From: a virus
DNA: 64,000 nucleotides
IMG/VR virus record: IMGVR_UViG_3300037089_000506
Direction: 5' to 3' (one strand)
Shown: positions 14,732-61,495 of the stretch, piece after piece
How the letters are laid out: the number at the start of each line of letters is the position of its first letter
Position numbering within the stretch: the stretch's first letter is position 1
Notes under the pieces: model-generated
What the model saw: the letters and a program-made list of their open reading frames with translations, nothing else
Told to the model about the DNA's origin: nothing
Database searches by the model: none
Program-made: the position numbers and the translations under genes

Positions 14732-14752
14732 AGAAGGAACTTCGTTCCTTCT
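14732..14752. terminator. hairpin/terminator after the 932-aa gene
   Basis: agaaggaac-ttc-gttccttct, perfect 9-bp stem. Confidence 0.65.
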
Positions 14753-14754
14753 CT

Positions 14755-17553
14755 TTATAAATTAAAGTCTGTATCGTCGGAGAGAGAAAATAAAAGTACT
14801 AAGTTTAATACTGTAGTTATAGTCTCTTTAGGATATTGTTCCATATTCAAGAATTCCTTAACTATCATATCATACATTTTTTCAACTTTATTCCTATAAT
14901 TACTTGACTTCCACTCAGAACTAAATTCATTAGCCCATTCCTTTAAAGAGTCATCAGCAGCCTGAGATTCAGATTCCTGTGCTGCCTCTTCCCTTTGTTC
15001 TTCAGACCAAGCTTCAATATCATTCTTATCTATACCCATACCTGTACCTTTACAGAATCTACATTTATTTCCTATTTTTTGGGCTAATACTTCCATTGCA
15101 GTATCATCCATAGGAATATAAGTACCATCTTCACGTTTCTTTCCATATACAGATATAAATTCATTAACGAGATTAGGGTAATCACTTTGTAATTTACCTA
15201 ATGCAGTAGCATATTGATTTTCATCCAGTTCTGTTGTCCAATCATTATCATTATCTTTAGCATAGATGGCATAACCAGTACCATCACAATAAGAGCATGG
15301 GTCAGCTTCAGATAATAATGCTGGTTCTGTATCCTTCAAGAATTCCCATGGGTTATCATAACCATATTTATATGAATAAGCATCATTACCTGCTGCATCT
15401 TCCCAATAAGTATCATTGAATGCCATATAATAAAATTTATCATCAAGGATATCAGTAAGGTTTTCTATATCAGAATCTATCATAGCAGATGTAAAACTTT
15501 TTAATGCTAATTTTGATTTTAACACTTCAAATTTTTCTGGATTTGTACATATTTCTACTACTATTTTCTTTTTATCAGGAGCGAATACAAATGCTTTAGT
15601 ATGCTCATAAATAGCATTAGATATAGGCTTAGGTAGAGCATTAGCAAACTTAGTATGATTACCAACATCCTCATCTTCCTCATCCATCCATTGATTTGAT
15701 TCTAGATGTATTTGCCACTTATCAGGAGTAGAATATTTCTGGGTACCACCAACTTCAGTTGGATGCTTTTTTATTATGATAATCAGTGGACCCTTATTAT
15801 TATAATAATTGAACTTATTCATTCCAGGATCAGTATATGTTGTACACCATTTTGTATTAGCTCCATATTTACATGCTGCTTTCATTGTCAATGGGCGTAC
15901 TACTAGCCATTGTGAGTCTTCATACCACTTCTCAGCTTCGGTAGGGTCTATAGGCTCTTTAGCCTCAATTTCTTCTAATTGGTATCTATGCACATCTATT
16001 AATTGGGATAAGTCTCTGAAGGATTTAATATTCATTATATTGTATAATGGAGTTGTATCTTTTAGTGTACCTTCAGGAGTTGCAGATAGTAATTTCTTGT
16101 TTTTTAACTTGGTGTATTTCTTTAAGTCCTCAGTAACTTTAGGGTAATCTTCCTGTAAAAATCTTACTAATCTTTTATCATAAAAATAGCCTAATTGTTC
16201 AGCACCACCATAACTAAGAGGATGATAGGTTATAATATGGTCTCTAGCCCTTCCTTCATAGGTTTCATGCCCTTCTTTTTTAAGTACTTCTAATGCATCC
16301 AAAAGTTGAGGAATTCTAAAGTCCTTCATAAAACATCTTATTATCCATACAGCATATTTTCTATCAAGGGTAGGATCAATATCACATAAGAATTCAAATA
16401 AATGAGGGGATAGAATCTCATTATATTTACCATAATTGATAGCTTCAGTGAAATCTATACTCTTTCTTTTTTTAGTTTGTACATAACGAAGTATTCTTTG
16501 TTTTTCCTTTGTAAAGCTTACCATATCTATATATTCATCAAGCCATGACCAATTTTTATTACATAATTCAATATAAGCATTAATCTTTTCAGGGAATCTA
16601 TCAATATCATCTTGTATATCCATAAAACCATAATTACTTATATCTATCATCTTTCCCATTTCAGGGCGTTTTTCAGAAGAACCATAAAAATATCTACTAT
16701 TAGTATTATATGGTAATCCTAACTCTCGTGCTACCCTTCCATGAGAAGTAATATCACCTCTAAATGCTATTAATTCTTTTGTTTCAGAATCTGCTATGAA
16801 TTTCAATCCAGTTTCTTGAGAGGATTTCCATAGTAATATAATTTCTTCAGGGGTAGGATTTTTCATTATATTTACTCTAGTACTATTACCATTTCTATCT
16901 ATATATATTGTTTTTAGACAATATTCTTTTAGTGTATTTTCATTTATATTCCTACTTCTTTTTGAATACTTACCAGTATTAGAATAAGCTGATTTTATTT
17001 GAAAGGGACTAAATACGCAATAAGAAATTCCTTCCCCTTCCCATTCATTTTCGTAGATAAGCCCATCATAACCATAGTGCTGTATTAAAGTAACAATGCT
17101 TTTTAAGCATTTCTGTATTGCTTTAGATGAATCTTGAACAGCAGTATTCCTAGCATATACTTCTTCCATATACTTTTCTATTTTAGCGGATAAATCAAAT
17201 AAAGCATAGGATAATTCTTCATTTTGTTCCTTACATGAATCACCTATAATAGTAGCTACTGTCTCAGGCTCATTATCGCTTTGAGTGTCTTCAATATAGA
17301 GAGGATTTACTATTCTTAAATAGCATACATACATAGAGGGGTTTGTTGTTCCCTTTTCTCTTGATATAGAATCTAATCTCTTATTAGATTGCTCTGGTTT
17401 AGAACCAAAATGAATGCCAATACCACTAAACTTGAAGGCAGTAAAGCCTCCTGCCTTAGTAACATGGTAGCAACGAAGGGGTAAACCAGCATCATCAACT
17501 ACTTTAGAGTCACCAAACCAAGATATAAAGTTAGGGTTTTGTAGAATGTCCAT
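14755..17553 (-). CDS. large polyvalent protein: ART-PolyVal-like N-terminus, YGANTKWC (PcfJ-like) domain, CxxCxGxG zinc finger
   Basis: NPNFISWFGDSKVVD..G.PL.CYH; GYDGLIYENEWEG...VFSPFQIKS; AACKYGANTKWCT; CSYCDGTG/CRFCKGTG. Confidence 0.6.
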   Translation of the reverse strand: MDILQNPNFISWFGDSKVVDDAGLPLRCYHVTKAGGFTAFKFSGIGIHFGSKPEQSNKRLDSISREKGTTNPSMYVCYLRIVNPLYIEDTQSDNEPETVATIIGDSCKEQNEELSYALFDLSAKIEKYMEEVYARNTAVQDSSKAIQKCLKSIVTLIQHYGYDGLIYENEWEGEGISYCVFSPFQIKSAYSNTGKYSKRSRNINENTLKEYCLKTIYIDRNGNSTRVNIMKNPTPEEIILLWKSSQETGLKFIADSETKELIAFRGDITSHGRVARELGLPYNTNSRYFYGSSEKRPEMGKMIDISNYGFMDIQDDIDRFPEKINAYIELCNKNWSWLDEYIDMVSFTKEKQRILRYVQTKKRKSIDFTEAINYGKYNEILSPHLFEFLCDIDPTLDRKYAVWIIRCFMKDFRIPQLLDALEVLKKEGHETYEGRARDHIITYHPLSYGGAEQLGYFYDKRLVRFLQEDYPKVTEDLKKYTKLKNKKLLSATPEGTLKDTTPLYNIMNIKSFRDLSQLIDVHRYQLEEIEAKEPIDPTEAEKWYEDSQWLVVRPLTMKAACKYGANTKWCTTYTDPGMNKFNYYNNKGPLIIIIKKHPTEVGGTQKYSTPDKWQIHLESNQWMDEEDEDVGNHTKFANALPKPISNAIYEHTKAFVFAPDKKKIVVEICTNPEKFEVLKSKLALKSFTSAMIDSDIENLTDILDDKFYYMAFNDTYWEDAAGNDAYSYKYGYDNPWEFLKDTEPALLSEADPCSYCDGTGYAIYAKDNDNDWTTELDENQYATALGKLQSDYPNLVNEFISVYGKKREDGTYIPMDDTAMEVLAQKIGNKCRFCKGTGMGIDKNDIEAWSEEQREEAAQESESQAADDSLKEWANEFSSEWKSSNYRNKVEKMYDMIVKEFLNMEQYPKETITTVLNLVLLFSLSDDTDFNL

Positions 17554-17559
17554 TTACAA

Positions 17560-18417
17560 TTAGTCTGAATAATAAGCCCAATGAAAGCCACCTGCGGTTT
17601 TCATTTGTCCTGAACAGACTCTGGATACTCTGTTTATTCCTGTTTTATTAAATACATCTGTCATTGAATCATATATAATTCCTGTCTCTATACACATTAT
17701 TTTTTTAGCATTTAGAGAGGGCTTACCTGTTTTGATTCCTTTGTTCCAAGGTATTCTTCCTATCCCAACCTGTCTAAGTTTTTCAAGTTCCTCTGGTGTT
17801 CTTTTTCTATTTTTTTGTGCTATACTTATAGCTTGTTTCTGCTCTTTGGTAATATGCCCACCATAATTCCAGTGTTTGTCCCCTTTGATTGCTCTTAGTT
17901 TTTCTAAAGTTTCTTCTGAAGCTTTATACCCTTTTCTTGAGGCTATAAGTTTTTGCTTATTCTCCTCAGACATTACTCTACCTTCACAGTTCTTATTACC
18001 CTTTAATGATTCAGAATATTTTGCTACACGTTCATCAGTTTTGTCTAAGCCCTTATTCCAAGCTGGGGTACCCTTTTTAGATTCACTTATTTTCTTACGA
18101 GTTTCAATAGATTTAGGGCCACTTCCCCCATCACCACCAGTAGTAAGATTATATCCAAATTCAGAATTATTACTTTTATATTCAGCAATATATTTTTTTT
18201 CTAATTCAGCAAGCTGTTCTTTATTACTACACTCTTCAATAACAGTCCAAGTAAAATTTTCAGCACCATATTTTCTCATAGCTGAGTGAAAATAAGTTCC
18301 TTTTCCTATTCTTGCTTTATAAAGATGATCCTTTTTTCTAATTTCCATAGATTTAGATGCTTTTCCAATATAAATTTTATTATTTATATTATTCTCTACC
18401 TTATATATTTCTCCCAT
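17560..18417 (-). mobile_element. free-standing GIY-YIG homing endonuclease with NUMOD3/NUMOD1-type C-terminus
   Basis: GEIYKVENNINNKIYIGKA, YNLTTGGDG, TRKKISESKKG, WNKG repeats, GGFHWAY. Confidence 0.9.
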
Positions 18418-18459
18418 ACCAATCTCCTATATATAGTTAGTATAAGAGAAAGTCGCCGC

Positions 18460-19737
18460 CTACGTAGCACGCACTATGGCGGCTTTGCTAGACATTTGCC
18501 ATAGCTCTAATGTTCTTTGCTCTAATATATCAGCTCTATTCATAAAATGCTCATAATTAATAGTTCCTGGTATATCTGATTTTGCTTGTGAACGTAGCAT
18601 AGCAAAAGCCCTCAAGCAGTATGCTTTAGCCAAGTCTCGAACTTCGTCAACTCTATTCATTGGTATATCTGACCAGAAATTACTCATTGAACCCCACGTT
18701 ATTTCTAATACACCTCTTCGAGTGGTGTATCCATTGACGAAGCCCTGTTGAATATAAATACGAATTCTTTGTCTTGTGCCATAATTAATTATACCCTGCC
18801 TCGCAGCCCTCTCTAAAATATAAGTACTAAAGCTCATCGTATCCACGAAGCCTTGGCGTCTAGATGAATTTATATTGGGTGTACTAAAAGCACCACGAGG
18901 AGATATAGACATTAGAACTTCATCAAAATATCTATATAGGGGGTTGTTAGGAACAGGCCCTACAGGGTAACCCGGATTTAACATTGCCTTAGTAGCAGTA
19001 AATGCCCAGTTAGGTATTGCTATTTTGAAGTTAGCATCGGGCAATGCATATGAAGCTACAGTTTCGATAGGGAACCATTTGTAGAATACTTTCATTGCAG
19101 GTAATAGCATGTAATTACAGATATCATCCCTACTGTATTCTAATTCAGCTATTTTTATGAAGGGTACACCTATATCTATTAAAATTGTATTGATATCATC
19201 ATCATCAATAATAACTTTACTATTGGTATTAGCCTCTTGAAATGGGACCCATGAAGAATTGTAAGGTAGAGTTATTGCTTGATATGCTAATTGAGTCAAT
19301 ACTAAAAAGAAATGGGGGTCTACAATAAAAGTAGAATTATCAATAATAGTGCCTGACGTTGAATCAGCTACCATCATATTAGTCCAAGTAAAAGTAGAAG
19401 CTAGTGTATAATCGGCATCACAAAAAAAGATACACCCGTTCAAAGGAGATGTAGCTTCTACACATCTAAAAACTGTATTTCTAGTATAAACTCTAGTTAA
19501 ATTATCTATTTCTAATTGTCCCATTGATAACCATGTATCCCTAACCTGAGCTGAAGTATAAGTAAAAAAAGTTGATAGTTTTATATTAGTAGTATAAGGC
19601 GAAGACGAGGGGGTTTCAGGGGAGTACCCTGGCTGTATTGTGGTTAGAATTGGATTATAGGAAACGCCAGTTCCAGGAGATAGTGTAGTTCCTGGTGCTT
19701 GGTTGGGATCGGGCTGGAAAGGAATAAAATCTGACAT
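18460..19737 (-). CDS. neck protein (T4 gp13-like)
   Basis: ILIDIGVPFIKIAELEYSRDDI...PAMKVFYKWFP and AKAYCLRAFAMLRS...IPGTIN resemble gp13 N- and C-terminal motifs. Confidence 0.55.
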   Translation of the reverse strand: MSDFIPFQPDPNQAPGTTLSPGTGVSYNPILTTIQPGYSPETPSSSPYTTNIKLSTFFTYTSAQVRDTWLSMGQLEIDNLTRVYTRNTVFRCVEATSPLNGCIFFCDADYTLASTFTWTNMMVADSTSGTIIDNSTFIVDPHFFLVLTQLAYQAITLPYNSSWVPFQEANTNSKVIIDDDDINTILIDIGVPFIKIAELEYSRDDICNYMLLPAMKVFYKWFPIETVASYALPDANFKIAIPNWAFTATKAMLNPGYPVGPVPNNPLYRYFDEVLMSISPRGAFSTPNINSSRRQGFVDTMSFSTYILERAARQGIINYGTRQRIRIYIQQGFVNGYTTRRGVLEITWGSMSNFWSDIPMNRVDEVRDLAKAYCLRAFAMLRSQAKSDIPGTINYEHFMNRADILEQRTLELWQMSSKAAIVRAT

Positions 19738-35771: not shown

Positions 35772-37274
35772 ATGGGTATGAGAAGTGCAATGAGAGAATC
35801 AGTACGTAAAACTACTTATGATGAGGCCACTATTGAGGCTTTGAATGAGAAGACTAATCGTGCTGATAGATATGTAGAGAAATGGTCGAGAGTTCCAGAG
35901 ATTGGACCCGGCCTTAAAACAATGAACGAGCGGAAGGCTCGAAACTTAGCTATTCTTTTGGAGAATCAGGCTAGAGCAATGGCACGATTATCTGAGGCTA
36001 CATACAGCTCAGCTTTCGCTGCTACTCCTGAGAACATGATTCGTTTGGTAAGGCTTGCTTATCCAAACTCAATTCGTGATAAACTCTTTACTGAGTTTGC
36101 TATGGAGACAGCTAAGGATTCAATCAAGTATATCAAGCCTATATATACAGCAAATACTAACATCAATCGTGATGATTCATTTGCTGGTGCTGGTTTGAAT
36201 TTTAACCCTAACGTAACATATGAGTCAAAGCAATCAAGGTTCCCAACTGAGATGGCAAACTGCCCATCAATCTCTGGTTCCGTAGGCTCAAACTTCACTC
36301 TTACCTTCCAGGCTAGTGAGTTTACACAAGGCTTCATTCCTGGTTATACAATTCTCTATGATGTGAACGGCAACGTATTAGCATATGAGAATAAGCCTGG
36401 TGGAGCTACAGCTAACTGGGTAATAGCTTCAACTTCTGGTATTACTTCTATAGCTATTGATACTACATCAACGGTATATACTATCGCTGTAGCCTCTGGT
36501 GGTACTGCAATAGCTAACGCTATTGGTAGGTATAACTCAGAGAAGGACTTAACTGGAACCTACTTAGGCGAAGTTGAGTTGACAATGCTTTCCTACCAGT
36601 TCCAAGTTCGTCCTATGACGCTTGGTGTAACATGGACAACACTTTCTGAGCTAGTATTAGACTCCACAGTCGGTGTTAGCACAGAAGAAGTCATCATGGA
36701 TGCTGCTGGACAGGAAATCAAGAAATCACTAGACTTCTTCGCAGTAAAGGTTGCTTATGCATCTGCTACTACGAACGGTTATGCTCCTATCGTTTTCGAT
36801 GCTGAGGCTGGTGCTGGTACACAAGACAGCTATATCCATACTGCACAGACTATTTCCCAAGCAATTGAGAGAGTCGGTGACGTTATGTACAACGCATTAA
36901 ACCGTGGTGGTGTATCTCGTCTTGTTGGTGGTCCTGCTGCTGTTACTTACCTTCGTCTTAATGCTGGATTTACCACAAAGGGTCAACAGCCCCGTATTGG
37001 TGGATATCAGGTTGGCGAGTTGTACGGTATTCCAGTATTCAAGGTACCTAAAGCAATATTACCTGAAAATACACTGATGTGTGTGTGGAAGAACGAGAAT
37101 AACGAGGCTGACGTTTCTGTAGCTTTTGGTACTCTAGTTCCATTCTTCTCAACTGGTGCTCTACAGAGGAAGAACTTCTATAAGGAAGCTGGACTAGCTT
37201 CTTTTGGTGACTACGTAATATTAAATCCTGGATATTTTGGATTAATACAGATTACTAACATAAGAGGGCTCTAA
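35772..37274 (+). CDS. major capsid protein (T4 gp23-like, HK97 fold)
   Basis: LAILLENQ, IRLVRLAYPN, size of 500 aa, position, phage-optimised codons, strong terminator downstream. Confidence 0.85.
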   Translation: MGMRSAMRESVRKTTYDEATIEALNEKTNRADRYVEKWSRVPEIGPGLKTMNERKARNLAILLENQARAMARLSEATYSSAFAATPENMIRLVRLAYPNSIRDKLFTEFAMETAKDSIKYIKPIYTANTNINRDDSFAGAGLNFNPNVTYESKQSRFPTEMANCPSISGSVGSNFTLTFQASEFTQGFIPGYTILYDVNGNVLAYENKPGGATANWVIASTSGITSIAIDTTSTVYTIAVASGGTAIANAIGRYNSEKDLTGTYLGEVELTMLSYQFQVRPMTLGVTWTTLSELVLDSTVGVSTEEVIMDAAGQEIKKSLDFFAVKVAYASATTNGYAPIVFDAEAGAGTQDSYIHTAQTISQAIERVGDVMYNALNRGGVSRLVGGPAAVTYLRLNAGFTTKGQQPRIGGYQVGELYGIPVFKVPKAILPENTLMCVWKNENNEADVSVAFGTLVPFFSTGALQRKNFYKEAGLASFGDYVILNPGYFGLIQITNIRGL

Positions 37275-38433: not shown

Positions 38434-40215
38434 ATGGAACTATCAAAAGAAGAACTCATTATTTGGTTAAATACAGTATTAAGAAATAAAAAAGGAATCA
38501 TTGATTCTAACAAAGTAAGGTCTTTGAAATATAAAGAATATATTGATGGATTAAAATCTTTGATAAAGGGTAACTATACATTTTTACAACGAATATGGCT
38601 TATTGATAGAAACCTTACAGAACCCCTAAAGTGTTCTTGTGGAAAAGAAGTTATATGGGTACAGGGTCATAGGGAATATTCTAAATATTGTAGTGCTGAT
38701 TGCGCAAAAAGGGACCCTGAGGTTATACAGAAAAGAAAAGATACAAACCTTCTAAAATATGGATGCGTTGCTCCTTTACAGAATAAAGAAATACAAAGTA
38801 AAGTTCAAAAAACAAATTTAGAGCGTTATGGGGCTAAAAGTTCTTTTGAACGTAAAGATTTTAGAGAGAAGTCAATAAAAACAATGATGAAGAATTATGG
38901 TGTTGATAATCCACAAAAAAATAAGGATATAAGGGAAAAGACAAATAAAACAAATATGGAGAGATATGGGTCTTCTTCACCCTTACATGGTAATACAGCA
39001 TATAAATCTAAAAAAACAATGATAGAAAAGTATGGAGTAGAGTTTGCTTTTCAGAATAAAGAACTTTTTGAAAAGTTTAAAAATACAATGATACAAGTAT
39101 ATGGAACAGAACATGCATTACAAAATAAAGAGATAATTAATAAAGAGATAGAGAAAAGATTTAAAAAGCTTTATGAAAAAATACTATCTGGTGAAAGAAC
39201 TGATAGTAAAGTAATTCCTCTTTTTACTTATAATAATTACAAAGGAACAGAATACACCTATACTTGGAAATGTGTTGAGTGTGGCAATGAGTTTGAGTAT
39301 CATTTGCAAGATGGTCGTATCCCCAGATGTATAAAATGTTATCCTTTAATGACTTCAGTATCCTCTTCTGAAATAGAGATAAAATCTTATTTGGAACAGT
39401 GGGGAATAAAAAATATTATAAGTTCGGATAGAAGTATAATACCTCCGTTAGAACTTGATATATATTTACCAGATAAGAAACTTGCTATAGAGTTTAATGG
39501 CCTATACTGGCATTCTGAAATAGCAGGAAGAAAAAATAAAAATTATCATCTTAATAAACTTAATTTATGTGCTGATAAAGGTATAGAACTTATACAAATA
39601 TTTGAAGATGAATGGATACAGAAAAAAAATATAGTATTGGCATTATTAAAAAGTAAGCTTGGTATCATTACTAATAAGTATCATGCTCGTAAATTAAAAA
39701 TAAAAATAGTGGATAGTAATATAGAAAGAGTCTTTTTAGACTCATATCACATCCAAGGGTATTACCCATCTTTTATTGTTTTAGGTTTATACAATAAGGA
39801 AGAATTAATATCATTAGCTTCCTTTATAAAAGCAAGATATAGAAGAAATTCCGAATGGGAACTATTACGATATGTAACCAAAGCAGACTGTCAGGTTATT
39901 GGGGGACTCTCAAAACTCCTATCATATTTCAGAAAAAGGTATATAGGTTCAATTGTGTCTTATTGCGATAAAAGATTATTTAATGGTAAGGGGTATGAAG
40001 CTGTAGGGTTTACAAAACTTAAAGATTCTTTACCTAATTATTATTATACTAAAAACTATACTAATCGTAGCTCACGAGTACAGTTTCAAAAACATAAACT
40101 CAAGAAAAAATTAGAATCATTTGACTTCACTCTAACTGAATGGGAAAATATGCAAATAAATGGATATGATAGAATTTGGGATTGTGGGAATATGGTATAT
40201 GAACTTATCCCCTAG
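38434..40215 (+). mobile_element. Hef-like homing endonuclease (KYG repeats + PD-(D/E)XK + GNAT-like C-terminal domain)
   Basis: TNLLKYG/TNLERYG repeats, ELDIYLPDKKLAIEFNGLYWH, HIQG, WELLRY, RIWDCGN. Confidence 0.8.
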
Positions 40216-52787: not shown

Positions 52788-53021
52788 AATATGCTAATTC
52801 CACTAATTGTATAGTGGGGTTAGCATGGAAGCAGTTAAAAGCGAAGACTATTTATCAGATTCAAATGAAGATACTAATTTCAACTCTCCTGTAGGTGCCC
52901 CAATGCCCCCAGGAGGAGGCGCTATGAATAGTAGTGCTCCTCATGAACCTAATGTATTACAGGAGTCTATCTACTACAATAATCATGTAATTCCTCGTAA
53001 TGCTACATTCAAGGTAGAATA

Positions 53022-54095
53022 ATGGATTATTTATTAAAACTCGGTGTTGTTGTAGATAGCAGGCATTTACTTGATAAAGCCCAACCTACCTATGGGCCTA
53101 ACTATTTTCAAGTTAAGGTTCTACCTGATATGAATGATATTAATGACAAGGATGTTAATGGTAACTACTTACTTCCTCGTTATCCAAATTTCTTTAAAAA
53201 TAATGATATCTGTTATCAGCCTGGGGACCCGGTATGGTTAGTTTGTGATGATGATTACCATGTTGGGTTTATTTTAGGGCCAGCACAACCACCCGCAGGA
53301 GAGGATATAACCTCATTTATAGCATTAATAAATAATGCAGAACTTAATGCTGATATGGAGCAAAGTGCCATAAATGAAATTTCTATTCAAAAGCTATCAG
53401 ATACTTATATTACATTCAGTAATGTTTCTACTGGAACCGCAGGACAAATATATAATACAAATATAGTCTACCTTTATGGCTCTGACGGTTCTATCTATTG
53501 TACCAACGGTAATTTTACTCTCACTGTATCCTCAGTAGGGGATGTATATATGGGAGGAAAATCCGTTACACAATACATTAATGGTGACCATTCTTTAGAT
53601 GCTAATGGCAGTACTGAAAATTTATCTTCAAAACGAATAGATGCTTCAGGTATGATTACCCTGAATTCGGGTGGAGGAATGTCCTTGGTTACGGGAGCTT
53701 CACCTTTATCTATACATACATCAGGGGATTTTGATTCTATTGTAGGAAAGACATATAATGAAACAGTGGTTGGTAGTTGTCATAGAACAGTTATGTTAGG
53801 CACAGACGCACAACAAGTATTAGCAGGGAGTTATACTATAGCAGTTCAAGCAGGAGTAATAACATTAGCCTGTAGTGGGCCTCTGACTATTGCATCTCCA
53901 ACTTCAATAGCCCTGGAAACCCTTGTATTAGATTTATCCAAATGCGATACCATTATTCTCCCTACAAACCCTTTACAGGGATTTGCTACAGGGGTTCCTC
54001 CCGGAACTTCTCCTATTGGTTTTATGGCATCTCTCACCCCTGGAGTGGGGGCAGGTACTGCTGTAGCAACATTGGAAGAATCTATGGCATTATAA
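53022..54095 (+). CDS. baseplate central spike (gp5/VgrG-like OB-fold + beta-helix)
   Basis: LGVVVDS...QVKVLP...YQPGDPVW...GFILG, followed by repetitive beta-strand segments. Confidence 0.65.
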   Translation: MDYLLKLGVVVDSRHLLDKAQPTYGPNYFQVKVLPDMNDINDKDVNGNYLLPRYPNFFKNNDICYQPGDPVWLVCDDDYHVGFILGPAQPPAGEDITSFIALINNAELNADMEQSAINEISIQKLSDTYITFSNVSTGTAGQIYNTNIVYLYGSDGSIYCTNGNFTLTVSSVGDVYMGGKSVTQYINGDHSLDANGSTENLSSKRIDASGMITLNSGGGMSLVTGASPLSIHTSGDFDSIVGKTYNETVVGSCHRTVMLGTDAQQVLAGSYTIAVQAGVITLACSGPLTIASPTSIALETLVLDLSKCDTIILPTNPLQGFATGVPPGTSPIGFMASLTPGVGAGTAVATLEESMAL

Positions 54096-54103
54096 GGTAT
54101 ACT

Positions 54104-55147
54104 ATGGCATTAGATTTAACCGGATCATTATTAGGCACTATTATAGCCAATAATTTATCTAAAAATACTACATCCTCTTCGTCAGCACAACAATACTGGA
54201 CTCTCGTATGTAATAGTCTCCTTAACTATATACAAAGTTATTTTCCTTCTACCTACCCTTCAGATACATTATCGGTTACTAATAATATTTATTGTGGTGG
54301 TAGCTATTATGGTAATGGGAGTGGTTTGACTTCTGTAAATGCTACTACTGCAACTATTACTGCTGATGTTTCTGCTACTACGTATTATCCTTATTTTGGT
54401 GGTGCTACCGCAAATCAATCGTTGAAATCCTCTACTAATTTATCATATGTTCCCTCTACTGGAACTTTATCAGCAACAAACTTTGTTGGTGGTAGCTATT
54501 ATGGTAATGGGAGTGGTTTGACTTCTGTAAATGCTACTACTGCAACTATTACTGCTGATGTTTCTGGTACTACATATTATCCTTATTTTGGCGCTGCTAC
54601 AGCAAATCAGTCGTTGAAATCATCTGCGTATTTGACGTATACTCCATCAACATCATCCCTGTATGTAACAACTCAATACGGGTATCTTGGCATGGGCGGC
54701 GTATATGGTGGCCCTGGGGTTTCCCCGAATATAGCAATTGGTAATACTTTAACAGGTGTGACAAATGGTAATAAGTTTTTACGAGTAAACTACATAGGCG
54801 GATTGGAGGTTATCAACAGTGCGTACAGTGCTGTAATAGCCACACTTGATGATACAGGCAACATCTCAGCTACAGGTTCTTTTTATACTTATCAAGTGAC
54901 TGGAATTACTTCTGTTACTTGGGTAAACTGGTTTGCCCCTACAGCAGGGCAATCTGGATTTATAATTGCTGTGTCGTCTGCTGGTGTAAATAGATATGAT
55001 ATGTACTATTATGTAAACTGCACAGCAACGGTAACAGTAATACAAATAAATGGTGGTGATGGTACTGTTAGAGCATCAGGTAGCTATGTTCAATATGGTG
55101 GGATGGCCAGCAGCACTATGACTTATTCAGCGATAAGAATATCGTAA
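54104..55147 (+). CDS. tail fibre/receptor-binding protein (probable start MALDLTG)
   Basis: AAGG SD before ATG 54104; GGSYYGNGSGLT trimeric-fibre motifs; internal duplication. Confidence 0.6.
   Translation: MALDLTGSLLGTIIANNLSKNTTSSSSAQQYWTLVCNSLLNYIQSYFPSTYPSDTLSVTNNIYCGGSYYGNGSGLTSVNATTATITADVSATTYYPYFGGATANQSLKSSTNLSYVPSTGTLSATNFVGGSYYGNGSGLTSVNATTATITADVSGTTYYPYFGAATANQSLKSSAYLTYTPSTSSLYVTTQYGYLGMGGVYGGPGVSPNIAIGNTLTGVTNGNKFLRVNYIGGLEVINSAYSAVIATLDDTGNISATGSFYTYQVTGITSVTWVNWFAPTAGQSGFIIAVSSAGVNRYDMYYYVNCTATVTVIQINGGDGTVRASGSYVQYGGMASSTMTYSAIRIS
54295..54566 (+). repeat. 192-nt-period tandem duplication inside the fibre gene (80 nt identical)
   Basis: 54295-54374 is identical to 54487-54566, then continues imperfectly. 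Confidence 0.9.
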
Positions 55148-55155: not shown

Positions 55156-56262
55156 ATGGATTTTATACCCGTTCCTATTACAGAGTTACTAATAACCTCA
55201 AAATGCAATATGAATTGCTCTTATTGCTTTGAAAAAGACAAGCCACAAAAAACTATAAGTAAAGGAATGATTGACGAGTTTCTGTTAAATTTACCCTCTA
55301 CAGGATTAATGGTATTTGGTGGTGAGCCCTTACTTGCTTTAGACGAGTTTGACTACCTCTATACGTCTATTCAGAAACTTGATATAAATGAAGATATAAA
55401 AGTTGATTTACTAAATTCCTTTACTAAAGATGCTCAACTAATAACAAATGGAACCCTAATAATAAAGAATATAAATATCATCAAAAGACTAAACCTAAAG
55501 TTACAGATAAGTATAGATGGACCTGAGGAAATAAATGATTTATGTAGGGTGGACCATAAAGGAAAAGGTACATACAGTACAGTGATAAGAAACATAAAGT
55601 GCTGTATTGCTAATGATATTCCTTGGAGTTGCCATGGTGCTATAGGAAGAAATAATTTTTCTAATCTTTCAAAGTTATTTGATTTTTGGTGGGAAATCTG
55701 TAAATTAGAAGCAAAGGGTGATTTAGATAAAAGTATTGGAATGCTAGGGGAGAATACATTCCAAATAATATTTGAGGAGAATTATACTGATGATGATATA
55801 GACATATTTTTACGAGAACAAGAGGAAATATTTAATAAAATTTTTTTATTGCCAGAACTAAATCAGCAACAAAAGATTACTTTAGCTAATAATTGGTATA
55901 AAAGAAAAGGAGCGGTTTGTACCGCTGGACATTTTATGTATGCATATAATCTAGAGGGAGAATTGTTTCCTTGTCATAGACTAGCAATGATAGCAGATAA
56001 AAGCAACTATAATTTTTTTGAAAGAGGGCCTAAGTTCTTTAATGCCTTTCTTAATATGGGGAAAAATAAGAAGATGTATTCCAGTACGCAGAATATACTC
56101 GATTATAATAATAGTAATAATAAATACTATCAGCAAAATTGGTGTCCTTCTACTAATGTGCAGACATCAGGAACCCCCTATTACCAATCCTGTAAATATA
56201 ATGTACTTATAGCAGAGTATGGTAGGTTTGTAGATGCTTTATTTGAGTATGCCCATATTTAA
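55156..56262 (+). CDS. radical SAM enzyme with a SPASM-like C-terminus (peptide-maturase type)
   Basis: CNMNCSYC, FGGEPLL, TNGTL, ISIDGP, CTAG...GELFPCH...WCPSTN...SC. Confidence 0.9.
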   Translation: MDFIPVPITELLITSKCNMNCSYCFEKDKPQKTISKGMIDEFLLNLPSTGLMVFGGEPLLALDEFDYLYTSIQKLDINEDIKVDLLNSFTKDAQLITNGTLIIKNINIIKRLNLKLQISIDGPEEINDLCRVDHKGKGTYSTVIRNIKCCIANDIPWSCHGAIGRNNFSNLSKLFDFWWEICKLEAKGDLDKSIGMLGENTFQIIFEENYTDDDIDIFLREQEEIFNKIFLLPELNQQQKITLANNWYKRKGAVCTAGHFMYAYNLEGELFPCHRLAMIADKSNYNFFERGPKFFNAFLNMGKNKKMYSSTQNILDYNNSNNKYYQQNWCPSTNVQTSGTPYYQSCKYNVLIAEYGRFVDALFEYAHI

Positions 56263-56274
56263 TAGGAGAAAGTA

Positions 56275-56913
56275 ATGCCAACTATTGCAAATCCAGTAAC
56301 ACAGACTAATATAGTTACTGATTCAGATATTAGTGCTATTATTGTTGCTATAAACTCATTAATCACTTCGAGAAGCGCAGGTTCTGCGGTGGGAGCGCCT
56401 TCTCAGTATACTAAAATATATGGAAGCCTACCCCAAGGAATAATTACACAAGAGAATACATTAAATTCTACTCACACATGGCCTGGATTAATCAATCCTA
56501 ATGGGTATGGAACTTTAGTTCATTCTAATATAGGTACAAATCTTAGTTTAACTGCTGCTAGTGGTAATTTTAATTCTGGTGTAACTCTGCAAGCTTCTAC
56601 AATGAATGCTATTGTAAATGATATTAATAGTTTATATAATCAATGTGCATGTAATGTAGTAACCTCTAATTATTCTACGTGTAGTTCATACTCATGTACA
56701 GCACATGCTTGTGCGTGCAATGTAAAATGCGCAAATGGGTATTCCTGTACATGTTATACTTATGATATCGGGCATGGGGATCAGTGCGTGTGCCATGGGA
56801 CTAATTGTTGTAACTATAATGGGTGTACCCATGTTACTTGTACTTGTGACTATGTGTGTAGTGCTCAAAATACTTGCAGTTGTAATAATCAATGTGTATG
56901 TGAGTATAACTAA
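56275..56913 (+). CDS. fibre-like protein with a Cys-rich C-terminus (21 Cys, 7 CxC); candidate radical SAM substrate
   Basis: Cys counted directly from the translation; Asn/Thr/Ser-rich N-terminal half. Confidence 0.75.
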   Translation: MPTIANPVTQTNIVTDSDISAIIVAINSLITSRSAGSAVGAPSQYTKIYGSLPQGIITQENTLNSTHTWPGLINPNGYGTLVHSNIGTNLSLTAASGNFNSGVTLQASTMNAIVNDINSLYNQCACNVVTSNYSTCSSYSCTAHACACNVKCANGYSCTCYTYDIGHGDQCVCHGTNCCNYNGCTHVTCTCDYVCSAQNTCSCNNQCVCEYN

Positions 56914-57719
56914 TGAAAATAGCTATAGTAACACGTACTCATAATAGGCCATTATTATTACCACGATGCTTACGGAGTATAGATAAACAGGCATATACTA
57001 AATATATCCATATTGTAATATCAAGTAGTAATAATTATGATCAAGATTACTCCTTATGCACGATGCCCTATAATCCTAGAAGAACTATATTAAAAAGTAA
57101 AGAAAATAATTTAGGAATGATGTTAAACCAAGCATTAGAAGTAGCCAAGGACCATAAGTGTGATCTATTTTCTATTCTTGACGATGATGATGAATATGTG
57201 TCTGATAGATTAGAAAAGATAGTAAGGGCATATACTACTGCAAATACCCATGGAATTTCTTGCTTACAGATGACTATAAAAGAGAAGATTATAGATACTT
57301 CTATTATTGAAACCTTTAGGTGGAGACAAAAATTAGATACTTTTAGTATAGTTCCTTATAATGATAAAAATTATAGAAATCCAGGACAATTTACTTATGA
57401 TAACTATGCTTTAGATGTATGTAAAGAGTACCCACCAGAGAGCATTAGCCCCGAACACTACTTTTTACGAAAATTTATGGAGAACAATGCTATTGCTATT
57501 TGCCCTGAATATTTGTTTAGATATCATATAAGAGAGAACGATAAGCCTGGAGAGGGAGAATTACCCAACCTAAATACTATCACCTATGATAATAATATAT
57601 CCCATATACACCGTGATATGGAAATAAGTCAATTGATATCCATAGCTCAATCTGAGAAAAATAATGGGCTTATTTCTTATTTTACTAACTTGTTAGAGGA
57701 AACAAAAAATGATATATAG
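56913..57719 (+). CDS. glycosyltransferase family 2-like (GT-A)
   Basis: IAIVTRTHNRPLLLPRCLRSI, ILDDDD. Confidence 0.8.
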   Translation: MKIAIVTRTHNRPLLLPRCLRSIDKQAYTKYIHIVISSSNNYDQDYSLCTMPYNPRRTILKSKENNLGMMLNQALEVAKDHKCDLFSILDDDDEYVSDRLEKIVRAYTTANTHGISCLQMTIKEKIIDTSIIETFRWRQKLDTFSIVPYNDKNYRNPGQFTYDNYALDVCKEYPPESISPEHYFLRKFMENNAIAICPEYLFRYHIRENDKPGEGELPNLNTITYDNNISHIHRDMEISQLISIAQSEKNNGLISYFTNLLEETKNDI

Positions 57720-58611
57720 TAACAATAATTTTGCATATAATCGAAAATATTTTATTAAAGATTTATTCAATCCTCGGGAAATATTTTCTCATTTTAGCCA
57801 GATAACCTTTTCCAATTTCTTGTCTTTTTATAAGTTTTTAGAGAAAAGTCTGTTTACAATAAATCAAAAAGAGTATAAGATTCCTGTTAGCAACCGTAAT
57901 GAGTTACAGATGTTATTAAAAATTATTAGAGAAACGGATATTATTAAAAATAAAATAAATATACAGTTTTCCTCTAATTTATTAGAAGATATTGAAGAAC
58001 TTATAACGGATACTACTATATATTTATCTTCAGATAATAGTACATTACAAAATATAAAAGAAAAAGAAAATAATTATATTTATAATAATACTTTGTTTTG
58101 GACAGAATATATAATTACATCAGATAACTATGCTCAAGTATATAAGGATATGATAAAACTTTGTATTAAGCATCCTGTACTCAATTATATTGATCTAAAA
58201 ATAGATTATTCCTCTTTTGAGGATAAGCCTCTTTCTGAATTACACTCTTTATTCTTCTATCTTAGTTTACTTAAAAAATGGACAACAGAGCCACAGGCAG
58301 CTATGGGCAAGAATCAGAAAATGATAACACTCAAAAATTCTTTTGACCCCGTTAGATGCTATGTTAGCGAATCCCTAGATATACTTTTAGATAAGGACAC
58401 CCCCTATTTTTCTATGGGAAAATATCTAGATTTAAATGGAGAGGATGTTCCTTTGGAGGAACTTAATACAATAAGAAAACTAATAGATGTAAAGTTTGAA
58501 ACAGAATATAAAAATTGGTATTTAATTGATTTAGCCCAGAATCAAAAGGTTATGGAAGATATTTATGAAACTCCTTATCTTGCCAAGTTGGTTCAAAGTT
58601 GGCTATTGTAA
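57709..58611 (+). CDS. hypothetical protein in the modification cluster (possibly a degenerate radical-SAM-fold partner)
   Basis: Overlaps both neighbours; lacks CxxxCxxC. Confidence 0.45.
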   Translation: MIYSNNNFAYNRKYFIKDLFNPREIFSHFSQITFSNFLSFYKFLEKSLFTINQKEYKIPVSNRNELQMLLKIIRETDIIKNKINIQFSSNLLEDIEELITDTTIYLSSDNSTLQNIKEKENNYIYNNTLFWTEYIITSDNYAQVYKDMIKLCIKHPVLNYIDLKIDYSSFEDKPLSELHSLFFYLSLLKKWTTEPQAAMGKNQKMITLKNSFDPVRCYVSESLDILLDKDTPYFSMGKYLDLNGEDVPLEELNTIRKLIDVKFETEYKNWYLIDLAQNQKVMEDIYETPYLAKLVQSWLL

Positions 58612-59387
58612 TGGTTAATTTTGATATTGATATTACTTATGAGTGTAATTTATCTTGTAAGTATTGTAATAGATTATGCGGTACTAAATTTAATAAAAAT
58701 GATTTTATGTCTGTATCCCAGTTAGAAAAGTATATTGTTGCAGTTTTACCCCATATTTCTTCTGTATCAAGGATAAACATTCTTGGAGGGGAGCCTACAC
58801 TGCACCCTCAAATTTTTGAAGTTTTGGATTTATTAGTAAAAATACTAAGACCTAAACTATCTTTCCCTATGAATATTGTTTCAAATGGAGTAGGAGAAAG
58901 GGTAAATTCCATACTAGAAGAAATAAGAAAAAGATATAACACCTATGACAATTCACGATCTATAACAATGATTAATCCTTATAGTGTAGCAAAATCTAAT
59001 AAAGATTTTTGTATTGTTAGATCAAAATTTTATAATCAAAAAGTTGTAGAATCCAGGCATCACCCGAACTTACGGGGATTAATAGATTATAAAGATGATA
59101 TAAATATTGATTACTGTTGGGTACAAGATAATTGTGGATATAATATTTCCCCTTATGGGATTTATATATGTTCTATGGCTATAGCCATCTCTAGAATATT
59201 CAAATTAGGAGAAGGGCTGGATCATTTTCCTACTCCTGAAGAACTACTGAACCAAAAGAAAAAAATGTGTAAATATTGCCATATAAAATGTATACCCTTA
59301 CCCCCCTCCCCAGCTATATCCAAAAGTTTTGAAATAGCCATAGAAGAATGGGATAAAGACCCTTATTTTTTAAAGGTTTTAGAATAA
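58599..59387 (+). CDS. second radical SAM enzyme
   Basis: CNLSCKYC, ILGGEPTLHP, C-terminal CWVQDNCG...IC and CKYC. Confidence 0.88.
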   Translation: MAIVMVNFDIDITYECNLSCKYCNRLCGTKFNKNDFMSVSQLEKYIVAVLPHISSVSRINILGGEPTLHPQIFEVLDLLVKILRPKLSFPMNIVSNGVGERVNSILEEIRKRYNTYDNSRSITMINPYSVAKSNKDFCIVRSKFYNQKVVESRHHPNLRGLIDYKDDINIDYCWVQDNCGYNISPYGIYICSMAIAISRIFKLGEGLDHFPTPEELLNQKKKMCKYCHIKCIPLPPSPAISKSFEIAIEEWDKDPYFLKVLE

Positions 59388-59409
59388 TACTAATTATAAA
59401 GGAGAATAT

Positions 59410-59673
59410 ATGGACTTAGAAACCTTAGCTGCTCAAGTAGCGGACTTACAAAGCAAGATAAACCAACTAATGGTAGTTATACCTCAAATTGAAACCCTAT
59501 ATAAGCAAACTACTGCTTATCAGACACACCAAAATCATATTAACAGTGTATGGCAAGAGAGGTCATTATTAACACAGCTAAGAATGGAAGGAATGTCTCA
59601 TTCGAAAGCATTGTCTTATATTAAAAGAATAAATACTGGTGAAAAACCTTGGGAAAATGAAGGGGAATCCTAA
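59410..59673 (+). CDS. small coiled-coil protein
   Basis: AAGGAG SD; late motif at 59389. Confidence 0.55.
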   Translation: MDLETLAAQVADLQSKINQLMVVIPQIETLYKQTTAYQTHQNHINSVWQERSLLTQLRMEGMSHSKALSYIKRINTGEKPWENEGES

Positions 59674-59678
59674 TATTT

Positions 59679-60353
59679 ATGATTCCAAAAATCATACACT
59701 ATCTTTGGTTCGGCGACGTTGCTAAAAAACCCATAGATAGGATAAGTTCTTGGAAGAAGATTCTTTCAGATTTTGAGTTTAAAGAGTGGGGTGAATCAAA
59801 TTTAGATATAGACAAATATGAAGCATCTAGAAGGATGTATGATGCTAAACGATACGGTCCTGCATCAGATTCATTAAGAATAGATATATTAGCTGAAGAA
59901 GGTGGAATTTGGTTAGATACTGATATAATAATTCATAGAGATTTGTCTGATTTTTTACCTTATTCATTTTTTATTGGGCATAATGGATTTAATTTTAGTG
60001 TAGGGCTTATAGGGGCGGAACCCCACCATCCTTATATATTAAAGGTAAGGGAATGGTATGAAAATAATTGGAGCAGATGTATGTTTACTGTAGAGGAATT
60101 CAAGAAAAAATCTTTTGATACCTTTTTTCTTGCTAATTACTCCTCCATTTTAGAAAGAGTTTTCAAACAAAGATACAAATGTGTTCTTGATGGAAAGTCT
60201 AAAACATTAGATACTAAAGATGGTTTAATTAGAGTAGAAAATTCTACTGTATTTACTTTTAAAAAGGATAGCAATCCTAATTGCTATGCAGAACATCTTT
60301 ATGAAGGGACATGGCTTTCAAATAATAGGCTTTATCAAAAGACTCGGAAATAG
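59679..60353 (+). CDS. glycosyltransferase family 32 (OCH1-like, DXD)
   Basis: IPKIIHYLWFG, SDSLRI..L..EGGIWLDTD. Confidence 0.88.
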   Translation: MIPKIIHYLWFGDVAKKPIDRISSWKKILSDFEFKEWGESNLDIDKYEASRRMYDAKRYGPASDSLRIDILAEEGGIWLDTDIIIHRDLSDFLPYSFFIGHNGFNFSVGLIGAEPHHPYILKVREWYENNWSRCMFTVEEFKKKSFDTFFLANYSSILERVFKQRYKCVLDGKSKTLDTKDGLIRVENSTVFTFKKDSNPNCYAEHLYEGTWLSNNRLYQKTRK

Positions 60354-60355
60354 AA

Positions 60356-61495
60356 ATGATTAAAATAGCGTATGTGCCACAACATTCTAATTACATCCCC
60401 ATTTTAAGAGGGGGGCAAAGATATGACTTTGGGTATTCTTACCCTTTACAACAGTTAAGCAATGAAGGGCATTTCGAATTAAAAGTTTTTCTTGAAAATA
60501 AAACTTTAGTAAATTTTTCCATGAAAGTAACATTTCCTCTTTTCATAGGGTATCAACAAGATATACCAAACTATACTCACTCAATCCTTGCTATTGATGA
60601 GGTAAGTAAAATGATATCCAAGGATAAAATAGAAAACCCCTTAAAACCTTTTTTAGAACTATACTCAAATAATGACTTATGTAAAAAATTAGATGAATAC
60701 AAGCCAGATATAGTAATATCCTCTTATGCCTTAGATAAAATGGAATATAATTGTAAGAAAATATGGATATGTCATGAGTATTGGCCTGAAACTTTGAGGG
60801 AGTACCTAGAGAATAAAATATCTACAGATATAATTAATACTACTATAGAGATGATAAACAAGGATATGGTAGAAATATTATCTTATTTCGATTACTCTAT
60901 TACTGCTTCTTTAAGGAGTTTTTCTTTTATAGAAAACACAATAAAATCAAAGCGTATTAATATTTATATACCAGAAGGAAATTCTAAGATAGAGTGGGGT
61001 AAAGAGAAATATATAGTACTAAGTGCTTCCGCTGGGTGGTTTAGGTCAAAGGAGCACTTAAGAGAAGTATACCCGCTTATTGAGATGTTAGATAATAGAG
61101 AGAGTAAAAATATTAAATTATACTTACACTGTGGACATGACTTGGGGCTCCCTAAGTGCGATGTAATAAGAAACACCTATAGTCTGTATGATACTTTCAG
61201 CCCTGAATCTGTAGGGTGTGGTATAGCACCAAAAGAGTATAAATCTGCTGACCCCTCCAAAGTGTATATGTACTTATCCTGTGGTATCCCCTCTTTTGTT
61301 CATGAAAACAATTTAGAAAATTTTAAGGATGAAATAGGAGTATCTGCTTATTCTGCTGAAAAAGCTATAGAGAGTATTGAAAACAATATAAGAGAAAAAG
61401 AAAGTAATGCCATTCTCAGTTCCTTTAGATCAAACCATAATTTAGAAACACTAAAGAACCAATGGTTATGTTTTATAAAAGAGATTTTAGGATAG
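60356..61495 (+). CDS. putative GT-B (GT4-like) glycosyltransferase
   Basis: KPDIVISS, WICHE, SKVYMYLSCGIP motif typical of GT-B C-terminal domains. Confidence 0.5.
   Translation: MIKIAYVPQHSNYIPILRGGQRYDFGYSYPLQQLSNEGHFELKVFLENKTLVNFSMKVTFPLFIGYQQDIPNYTHSILAIDEVSKMISKDKIENPLKPFLELYSNNDLCKKLDEYKPDIVISSYALDKMEYNCKKIWICHEYWPETLREYLENKISTDIINTTIEMINKDMVEILSYFDYSITASLRSFSFIENTIKSKRINIYIPEGNSKIEWGKEKYIVLSASAGWFRSKEHLREVYPLIEMLDNRESKNIKLYLHCGHDLGLPKCDVIRNTYSLYDTFSPESVGCGIAPKEYKSADPSKVYMYLSCGIPSFVHENNLENFKDEIGVSAYSAEKAIESIENNIREKESNAILSSFRSNHNLETLKNQWLCFIKEILG

Follow-up and report, generated by a model that had tools for sequence, protein, structure and literature searches.

A radical SAM gene and its neighbors in a large uncultured phage

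We analyzed a stretch of 64,000 nucleotides from the IMG/VR virus record IMGVR_UViG_3300037089_000506, here called the window, and focused on a cluster of eight genes at positions 55156 to 61495. The first gene encodes a radical S-adenosylmethionine (SAM) protein, rSAM1, and is followed by the gene of a protein with a Cys-rich C-terminal part. Further downstream are a gene for a 300-residue protein, named X300, a second radical SAM gene, rSAM2, genes for glycosyltransferases (GTs), and a small open reading frame (ORF). All eight ORFs had been named in an earlier note made from the sequence alone, and all were found at their coordinates on the plus strand. The rSAM1 gene, the Cys-rich gene, and the X300 gene form the triad with which this study is mainly concerned:

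55156 to 56262, plus strand: rSAM1, the predicted catalytic member of the triad (Pfam Radical_SAM)
56275 to 56643, plus strand: N-terminal domain of the Cys-rich protein, residues 1 to 123, three helices predicted by AlphaFold2 (AF2)
56644 to 56913, plus strand: Cys core of the same protein, residues 124 to 212, the presumed modification site, with 21 Cys residues and the end CSCNNQCVCEYN
57709 to 58611, plus strand: X300, 300 residues, predicted pseudo-radical SAM protein (AF2 fold, no iron-sulfur cysteines)

The source of the window is a large uncultured phage. Among the products of the window are a major head protein, a head protease, ribonucleotide reductase, DNA polymerase, clamp loader, and UvsX, and contigs with a record of the rSAM1 protein reach 197,844 bp. 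A megablast search with the region found no cultured phage with shared DNA. Peat metagenomes of more than 10 studies (2018 to 2023) carry positions 55156 to 58611 in near-identical form. Fragments of this segment were also present in three peat metatranscriptome libraries, in which gaps of coverage are not evidence of silence. As DNA may have been carried over into these libraries, the fragments hint only weakly at expression. The anoxic conditions of peat suit radical SAM enzymes, which are sensitive to oxygen.

rSAM1, the Cys-rich protein, and X300 recur together

With an alignment of the rSAM1 family, four viral loci (L004 to L007) and six metagenomic loci (L053 to L058) were gathered. In all eight loci that reach far enough (the window, L004 to L007, and L053 to L055), the gene directly after rSAM1 is that of a Cys-rich homologue and begins only a few bases from the stop codon of rSAM1; the rSAM1 proteins of these relatives share 31% to 57% identity. 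A homologue of X300, the "unknown protein" whose place as third member of the triad the earlier note had overlooked, is encoded in nine of nine loci with enough flanking sequence. It lies directly upstream in L005, L006, L007, L054, L055, L057, and L058 and one or two genes downstream in the window and in L004. Hidden Markov models (HMMs) of the Cys-rich and X300 partners gave no other matches in 133 sources. GT genes are absent from six of seven relatives, the Cys-rich gene from none.

Because the GT genes and the second radical SAM gene vary and the three other genes are constant, we regard the unit as a triad with changeable tailoring genes; judged by gene content, rSAM1, the Cys-rich protein, and X300 are its conserved core. 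The earlier note had named homologous radical SAM enzymes without a Cys-rich gene as evidence that would speak against its proposal. No such case was seen, the two genes being adjacent at eight of eight loci. The same eight loci show the layout of a precursor of ribosomally synthesized and posttranslationally modified peptides (RiPPs), that is, a recognition (leader) part and a core encoded beside a maturase gene. From this conservation rSAM1 and the Cys-rich protein very probably are a functional pair of enzyme and substrate.

Properties of the Cys-rich protein

The ORF at 56275 to 56913 encodes, as had been described, a Cys-rich protein, which has 212 residues and 21 Cys residues, every one of them within the last 89 residues. 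The N-terminal domain (N-domain) was modeled by AF2 with a pLDDT score (predicted local distance difference test) of 70 to 85 and with helices at residues 16 to 33, 51 to 65, and 107 to 124; it is a probable docking or anchor domain. The Cys core was predicted to be disordered (pLDDT of ~30). In the window's core Cys occurs at about every fourth residue, with CxC and Cx3C spacing.

The eight homologues are 190 to 316 residues long and consist of an N-domain of ~120 residues and a core of 65 to 200 residues with 19 to 61 Cys residues. CxC (104 cases) and Cx3C (76 cases) dominate the spacing within the family. The cores contain 26% Cys, are rich in N, T, S, G, V, and D, and have almost no K or R. 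The final 11 residues are invariant in pattern across the eight homologues. All eight end according to CxC[ND]xxCxC-E-[YF]-[NV], and the window's core has the ending CxCNxxCxCEY.

Pfam and NCBIfam gave no meaningful match for any of the eight proteins, and nothing significant was found when the model of the Cys-rich protein was compared with BFVD by Foldseek. Word-based protein searches returned only one to three matches, since the family diverges too fast for such a search. No repeat at the DNA level was detected in the window's Cys core by Tandem Repeats Finder. Searches with Pfam, NCBIfam, and PHROGs revealed neither a protease nor an exporter in the cluster.

A miniature of the Cys-rich protein is encoded at L058:336-527. 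It comprises 63 residues, a leader-like part of 34 residues and a core of 29 residues ending in CNSEFN, and its gene sits between a radical SAM/SPASM fragment and the X300-rSAM1 pair. With an ending of the same kind, it resembles a version of this substrate at peptide size.

rSAM1 is related to maturases of Cys-containing peptides and proteins

rSAM1 matches the Radical_SAM family (PF04055) with 49.5 bits (cutoff, 29.5), and its CxxxCxxC motif is formed by C17, C21, and C24. As the motif begins at residue 17, rSAM1 lacks an N-terminal RiPP recognition element (RRE). Among 47 sequences of the rSAM1 family, conserved Cys residues are found at positions 17, 21, 24, 150 (89%), 255, 273, and 330. 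The earlier note had described the enzyme as a radical SAM/SPASM protein; the first half of this description holds, the second only in part. By the criterion used here, a SPASM domain carries a seven-Cys C-terminal motif composed of CX9-15GX4C, CX2CX5CX3C, and a final Cys, which ligates two auxiliary clusters. The 47 sequences retain the first SPASM/Twitch element as C255-x12-G-x4-C273, but the CX2CX5CX3C motif is absent from them and no Pfam SPASM match was obtained. For this reason rSAM1 is expected, by its sequence, to be a Twitch-like enzyme with a truncated SPASM domain and a single auxiliary cluster rather than two.

About 50 full-length relatives of rSAM1 with 30% to 57% identity were found. 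The best curated model was that of PapB (NF047865), with 103.1 bits and an E value of 1.7e-29, its cutoff of 340 not being reached. Lower scores were obtained with TIGR04115 of the CXXX-repeat systems (52 bits versus a cutoff of 350; alignment over positions 6 to 340 of 359), with TIGR03906 (QhpD; E value of 7.5e-15, 54.5 bits versus a threshold of 453), and with TIGR04463 (CrpC type; 49.6 bits versus a cutoff of 525), where the aligned part begins at profile position 89 and the RRE part is missing. The top curated models, PapB, CXXX-repeat, QhpD, CrpC type, and SCIFF, all describe maturases of Cys-containing peptides or proteins. rSAM1 stays far below the curated threshold of every one of them. 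Among solved structures, CteB (4e-28) and anSME (1e-21) are nearest in sequence, with an alignment that runs through the C-x-G-x4-C motif of the auxiliary cluster; CteB and PapB outscore anSME. CteB, PapB, and anSME all act on peptidyl cysteine.

A different function of both proteins has to be weighed at this point, namely, that the Cys-rich protein is a metal-binding fiber, a metallothionein-like protein, or an iron-sulfur store and that rSAM1 acts elsewhere, for example on a sugar transferred by the GTs. Some Twitch enzymes, such as BtrN, act on sugars, and the CxC repeats could bind metal ions, for instance along a trimer axis in the way that iron is bound by the HxH repeats of T4 gp37. The single auxiliary cluster predicted for rSAM1 would be as in sugar-modifying Twitch enzymes, and three GT genes adjoin in the window. 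The composition of the core (26% Cys; rich in N, T, S, G, and D) and its CxC spacing fit metal binding, and in L005 and L006 the Cys-rich gene is followed by genes of CxxCxxCC proteins, for which Pfam gave no match. CrpA, a Cys-rich substrate of a radical SAM enzyme, is itself suspected of metal binding (PMC13692751). Yet GT genes are missing from six of the seven relatives and the Cys-rich gene from none, no genes of a sugar-nucleotide pathway lie in the cluster, and the enzymes nearest to rSAM1 modify peptides or proteins. We consider this alternative improbable; binding of metal would in any case be compatible with crosslinking, as the two are not mutually exclusive.

X300 is predicted to be a radical SAM-like protein without iron-sulfur cysteines

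X300 has no match in Pfam, NCBIfam, or PHROGs, and tblastn against cultured phages found nothing. An exhaustive profile search collected 116 representatives, all of ~300 residues. In the AF2 model (pLDDT of 74; predicted template modeling score of 0.75), the protein resembles radical SAM enzymes that mature RiPPs. VIA-align gave Z scores of 14.2 for TigE, 13.6 for CteB, 10.3 for ChlB, 9.6 for PqqE, and 9.4 for anSME, followed by SkfB and SuiB. The alignments to the RiPP maturases cover 264 to 271 of the 300 residues, and generic TIM barrels reach Z scores of ~7 to 8. A Foldseek search against the PDB yielded borderline E values only (~1e-3).

Neither a CxxxCxxC motif nor a conserved Cys column was found in 97 full-length X300 representatives. 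As this absence goes along with the fold of a maturase, we read X300 as a degenerate descendant of a radical SAM maturase that has lost its iron-sulfur clusters, that is, as a putative dead paralogue. Comparison of the X300 and rSAM1 profiles with hhalign revealed no sequence similarity (E value of 0.28), and the link between the two proteins is thus structural only. Since rSAM1 has no RRE, a role of X300 as a docking or chaperone partner is the most economical idea. A complex prediction for rSAM1, X300, and the Cys-rich protein gave a score of 0.00, which weighs neither for nor against such a role.

The fold matches of X300 also bear on the reaction. With the same enzyme-substrate pair, rSAM1 might convert Cys to formylglycine in the manner of anSME or catalyze epimerization, methylation, or the formation of C-C links. 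TigE, the best fold match of X300, makes cyclopropylglycine, anSME is the second-closest solved relative of rSAM1 (1e-21), and the rSAM1 family reaches no curated threshold. Against this stand the very high Cys density and the strict CxC/Cx3C spacing, which are typical of the thioether substrates SCIFF, freyrasin, and CrpA, and the higher scores of CteB and PapB in comparison with anSME. Chemistry of another kind is unlikely, and by analogy with these relatives we give thioether formation by rSAM1 about an even chance.

The Cys-rich protein shares its N-domain with proteins fused to Peptidase_S74

At several related loci the triad lies among structural genes: in L007 between tail sheath and tail protein genes, in L005 after a beta-helix protein gene, in L006 and L054 at a distance of 3 kb from a baseplate wedge gene, and in L055 before a tail fiber gene. 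Neighbors of the N-domain in the ESM Atlas are phage proteins with fn3, Ig-like, Peptidase_S74, or PF27846 C termini, and in one phage cluster with the N-domain fold, PF27846 is present in 53% of the members.

An HMM of the N-domain, iterated on the loci, retrieved 19 Cys-core proteins, all encoded beside radical SAM genes. In one group of them a short core (CICNSDCxCNxVCxCxxxCxCNY) runs without a gap into SDERLK, with which Peptidase_S74, the intramolecular chaperone of tail fibers, begins, and four of these fused proteins exceed the Pfam threshold for S74. The S74 part resembles annotated virion structural proteins of cultured phages. By hhalign, the family of the window protein (A2) and the S74 group (A4) are related with 96.7% probability (E value of 4.1e-10, 128 columns). 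The motif C.C[NDHQ]..C.C[EN][YF] occurs in 21 of 8,795 ORFs, all of them beside a radical SAM gene, and is located either at the C terminus or just before S74. Given this placement, the mature end of a fused protein after release of S74 would equal the natural end of the window protein. Pfam detected no S74 domain in the window's Cys-rich protein or in the seven other family members. We know of no studied S74-bearing fiber that needs a radical SAM enzyme.

The direct homology to the S74-fused proteins is in our view the strongest line for a virion identity. The earlier note had favored a virion appendage over a secreted peptide: the recurrence of N-domain and motif in S74-fused proteins and the tail gene context are in line with it, while presence in the virion is deduced from them. 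From context and domain homology, the Cys-rich protein is somewhat more probably a fiber or virion protein than anything else.

A released RiPP is the alternative to be considered here. In that case the N-domain would be a long leader, as known from Nif11 or NHLP leaders, and the modified core, once cleaved from it, would be set free by lysis to act as a toxin, as a signal, or against competitors instead of becoming part of the virion. The leader-plus-core layout and the disordered core fit such a product, the nearest enzymes of rSAM1 are RiPP maturases, and short versions are encoded beside radical SAM enzymes of this or related families, with 63 residues in L058 (CNSEFN end) and 65 to 68 residues in L017. 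On the other hand, the window cluster has no protease or exporter, the N-domain is homologous to that of the S74-fused proteins, and the loci lie inside tail modules. In addition, the invariant part of the core is its extreme C terminus, the place at which cleavage by S74 would create the mature end. A released peptide therefore appears unlikely.

The loci with S74-fused Cys-core proteins L028, L031, L037, and L043 (at ~8000 to 19500) contain whole arrays of radical SAM-like genes, with several ORFs of 280 to 350 residues and 9 to 13 Cys residues and with repeated phmmer matches of the window's rSAM2. This suggests that they are multienzyme tailoring islands in phages of 25 to 280 kb.

Proposed function of the triad

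We propose, as the more probable reading, that the triad is a phage-encoded RiPP-like system which matures a protein rather than a peptide. In this system rSAM1 would abstract hydrogen atoms in the Cys core and probably join Cys sulfurs to carbons of neighboring residues, giving sactionine or ranthionine thioethers. Through these bonds a floppy core would become a rigid knot, resistant to proteases and to reduction. X300 most likely would serve as a noncatalytic docking partner holding either the N-domain or the C-terminal CxCNxxCxCEY. The product would most likely be a fiber-like virion appendage, which is probably tail associated. In the least certain step, rSAM2 and the GT2, GT32-like, and GT-B proteins would be lineage-specific add-ons that may further tailor the Cys-rich protein or the neighboring fiber.

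Several observations weigh against the proposal. Concerning the enzyme, thioethers are predicted from relatives with only ~25% to 30% identity and no curated threshold was reached; the AuxII motif is absent, which makes rSAM1 appear more like the Twitch enzymes, and GT genes are adjacent in the cluster. Concerning the substrate, the core composition (26% Cys, rich in N/T/S/G/D, almost no K/R) would also fit a metal-binding protein, and the window's own Cys-rich protein has no S74 domain. The connection of X300 with radical SAM enzymes comes from a predicted fold (pLDDT of 74) and is not accompanied by profile similarity (E value of 0.28). As to the surroundings, the GTs are not conserved together with the triad, and the "spike" label of a gene upstream, described below, found no support.

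Radical SAM genes beside Cys-dense ORFs at other loci

Through similarity to radical SAM proteins, 132 loci were found, and ORFs within 3 kb of a radical SAM gene were called Cys dense if they encode at least 7 Cys residues in 30 residues. Such ORFs were present at 59 of the 132 phage or metagenome loci, in 44 cases directly adjacent and on the same strand. Nearby ORFs were Cys dense in 3.2% and distant ORFs in 0.4% of cases (odds ratio of 8.2), where not all loci are independent. Core types varied and included CQxx and CHSN, both beside distantly related radical SAM enzymes, CxCxxR, and a 14-fold CPCNCNF repeat. It is possible, though we hold it to be the less probable case, that large phages widely build fiber tips with thioether-stapled Cys-repeat cores and use a dead radical SAM paralogue as assembly chaperone. 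Stapled cores would then replace disulfides and could be made in the reducing, anoxic cytoplasm of the host.

The proteins encoded at L047:9248-9841 and L040:9197-9832 have the same N-domain, followed in tandem by ~14 perfect copies of CPCNC[ND]F, with 37 to 43 Cys residues, and their genes are located directly upstream of a radical SAM gene.

Accessory genes of the cluster

The other genes of the cluster are the following:

56913 to 57719, plus strand: GT2 glycosyltransferase, accessory (PF00535, 42.5 bits)
58599 to 59387, plus strand: rSAM2, a shorter radical SAM protein, accessory, varying between loci (Pfam Radical_SAM, 40.8 bits)
59410 to 59673, plus strand: protein of 87 residues with a conserved GEKPW end and a homologue in L004
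59679 to 60353, plus strand: GT32-like DXD glycosyltransferase, accessory (PF04488, 34.6 bits; cutoff, 23)
60356 to 61495, plus strand: GT-B fold glycosyltransferase (GT4/Gtf3-like), accessory (ESM Atlas)

The Pfam scores confirm the previous calls of a GT2, of a GT32-type DXD enzyme, and of a second radical SAM protein at 58599 (cutoff, 29.5). The gene at 60356 to 61495, described as GT4-like, has no Pfam match, and its likeness to GT-B/GT4 enzymes was seen in the ESM Atlas only, with a feature score of 0.96 to GT4/Gtf3_C clusters and structural template modeling scores of 0.74 to 0.77 to Glyco_trans_1_4 clusters. A PDB sequence search with GT2 gave nothing.

In rSAM2 the N-terminal third alone matches curated models. 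Its closest homologue at the loci is L055:5646-6509 (27% identity), and L004, L053, and L058 carry a different radical SAM protein with a CxxCx5CxxxC end; there are at least two unrelated kinds of the second radical SAM protein across the loci. A GT2 homologue (37% identity) was found in L053 only, and homologues of the GT32-like and GT-B proteins in none of the related loci. The earlier note had regarded two radical SAM enzymes and three GTs around one substrate as an unusual arrangement; with GT2 recurring once, the other GTs nowhere, and rSAM2 being variable, this arrangement is not conserved. A single conserved pathway made up of both radical SAM enzymes and the three GTs was accordingly rejected, the triad alone being conserved. 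Glycosylation of the Cys-rich protein by the neighboring GTs may occur, but we consider it doubtful.

The 87-residue protein has no family match in Pfam, NCBIfam, or PHROGs. Its homologue in L004 is encoded directly 3′ of X300 as a tandem duplicate (L004:10773-11222; phmmer E value of 4e-16). Other genes were observed at this place elsewhere. L006 has a sulfotransferase gene (PF00685) after the triad, where the window has the GT genes, and genes of small CxxCxxCC proteins without a Pfam match follow the triad in L005 and L006 (coordinates of the sulfotransferase and CxxCxxCC genes, L006:12804-13457, L005:11903-12319, and L006:11996-12852). The CxxCxxCC motif resembles that of the zinc/iron-binding YkgJ family. 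Further radical SAM genes are present in L055.

Upstream genes and cis elements

Two genes directly precede the cluster:

53022 to 54095, plus strand: protein of 357 residues, called a spike before, identity putative, no family match
54104 to 55147, plus strand: fiber-like protein that carries two Chlorovirus glycoprotein repeats in tandem

The protein encoded at 53022 to 54095 found no match in PHROGs, Pfam, PDB sequences, or, by tblastn, cultured phages, which leaves the spike label unsupported. For a protein of 740 residues, the PDB sequence search also gave nothing. The following gene, annotated before as a tail fiber gene, matches PF06598 (28.3 bits; cutoff, 27; two near-identical repeats of ~50 residues) and, weakly, the tail fiber family phrog_30299 (4e-5); its start was probably misplaced. 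The listed ORF from 53942 to 55147 overlaps the preceding gene by 154 nucleotides, and the Met at residue 55 comes after the stop codon of that gene; the true start is probably ATG 54104.

The late expression ascribed to the cluster in the earlier note is putative; the clamp loader and UvsX genes are located only 4 to 7 kb upstream. The statement that no sigma-70 promoter is visible proved uninformative, as the 60 consensus matches do not exceed chance (64.6 expected); a sigma-70 and terminator scan of the window remained at chance level. The stop/start overlaps noted at 56913, 57709, and 58599 are real. At 56913 the stop codon of the Cys-rich gene and the start codon of GT2 overlap by 1 nucleotide (TAATG), and the X300 start codon ATG 57709 lies 11 nucleotides inside the GT2 gene. 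For rSAM2, TTG 58599 (13-nucleotide overlap) and ATG 58611, which would form a second TAATG junction, are equally good starts.

The motif copies reported at 52802 and 59389 were confirmed and have the common sequence ACTAATTRTA:

52802 to 52811, plus strand: motif copy ACTAATTGTA, just 5′ of a short ORF preceding the putative spike gene
59389 to 59398, plus strand: motif copy ACTAATTATA, immediately before the Shine-Dalgarno sequence of the 87-residue protein gene

The window contains six copies (at 1729, 17555 on the minus strand, 38410, 42911, 52802, and 59389) versus 1.4 expected, and 0 of 100 shuffles reached six. Most copies are situated just 5′ of a start codon and adjoin the Shine-Dalgarno sequence. 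The motif could be a phage-specific promoter, a processing site, or a translation element; its closeness to the Shine-Dalgarno sequence makes a promoter role doubtful. In the head gene region, shortly 3′ of the major head protein gene (35772 to 37274), positions 38434 to 40215 encode an HNH/homing endonuclease of 593 residues (phrog_3339; E value of 1e-131).

Comparison with known systems

Radical SAM crosslinking is known for small secreted peptides and, in the case of whole proteins, for only a few cellular examples, QhpC and CrpA. The radical SAM/SPASM enzyme CrpC of Methanococcus voltae (TIGR04463) was reported in September 2026 to install ranthionine thioethers on CrpA, a Cys-rich protein of 28.8 kDa, and QhpC is the earlier protein case (PMC13692751). 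With CrpC/CrpA and QhpC established, crosslinking of whole proteins is not new as such. The novelty would lie in the viral setting, in the connection with fiber proteins, in an RRE-less enzyme with a single auxiliary cluster, and in the pseudoenzyme partner; in the literature we found no report of radical SAM modification of a phage fiber, of an RRE-less single-cluster enzyme, or of a pseudoenzyme partner.

If large phages widely staple fiber tips in this way, with a dead paralogue as chaperone, this would be the first case of RiPP-type radical chemistry maturing a viral structural protein and of a pseudo-radical SAM partner. If the proposal for the triad holds, an iron-sulfur-free paralogue as obligatory partner would represent a new, RRE-free way of substrate recognition. 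The proposal would also account for the many radical SAM genes that stand as orphans in the genomes of large phages, and it would offer fibers a new route to stability or to receptor specificity where oxygen is lacking, as in peat and gut. As rigid and compact scaffolds, the hypervariable crosslinked cores could be of use in protein engineering.

The CXXX-repeat systems (TIGR04115; PF27846, tSAM_targ_Cxxx_rpt), which are curated but uncharacterized models, likewise combine a radical SAM enzyme with a Cys-repeat target. In contrast to them, the spacing of the window's core is CxC/Cx3C and not CXXX, and rSAM1 scores far below the cutoff. In the Peptidase_S74 fibers of the endosialidase type, the likeness lies in the sister proteins, where the same N-domain and Cys-core ending run directly into S74, whereas the window protein stops where S74 would begin.

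Among solved and curated enzymes, CteB, which acts on SCIFF (PDB 5WGG/5WHY), and PapB, which acts on freyrasin, are nearest to rSAM1. Both have Cys-rich substrates, and CteB is in addition a top fold match of X300. They differ in their peptide substrates of ~45 residues, their RRE, their two auxiliary clusters, and their bacterial origin; to our knowledge, neither has a pseudoenzyme partner. In CteB the AuxI site, which has three Cys ligands, binds the substrate cysteine (PMC13692751). QhpD crosslinks Cys to Asp or Glu inside QhpC, the gamma subunit of quinohemoprotein amine dehydrogenase and thus part of a larger assembly (PMC13692751). As proposed for the Cys-rich protein, the modified protein stays in the assembly, but QhpC has three crosslinks in an enzyme subunit as opposed to tens of Cys residues in a repeat core.

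The CrpC/CrpA system also has a radical SAM gene beside the gene of a protein of >200 residues with a leader-like N terminus and C-terminal Cys repeats, and the Crp core, too, is modeled with low confidence. A third adjacent protein, CrpB, is a suspected helper there; it has the leader of the substrate, whereas X300 is predicted to be a dead enzyme paralogue. CrpC contains an RRE, a complete SPASM domain with all seven Cys residues, and three clusters, and rSAM1 has neither RRE nor AuxII. Finally, the Crp system belongs to an archaeal cell and has been suggested to play a role related to metals, whereas the triad described here is viral and situated among tail genes.

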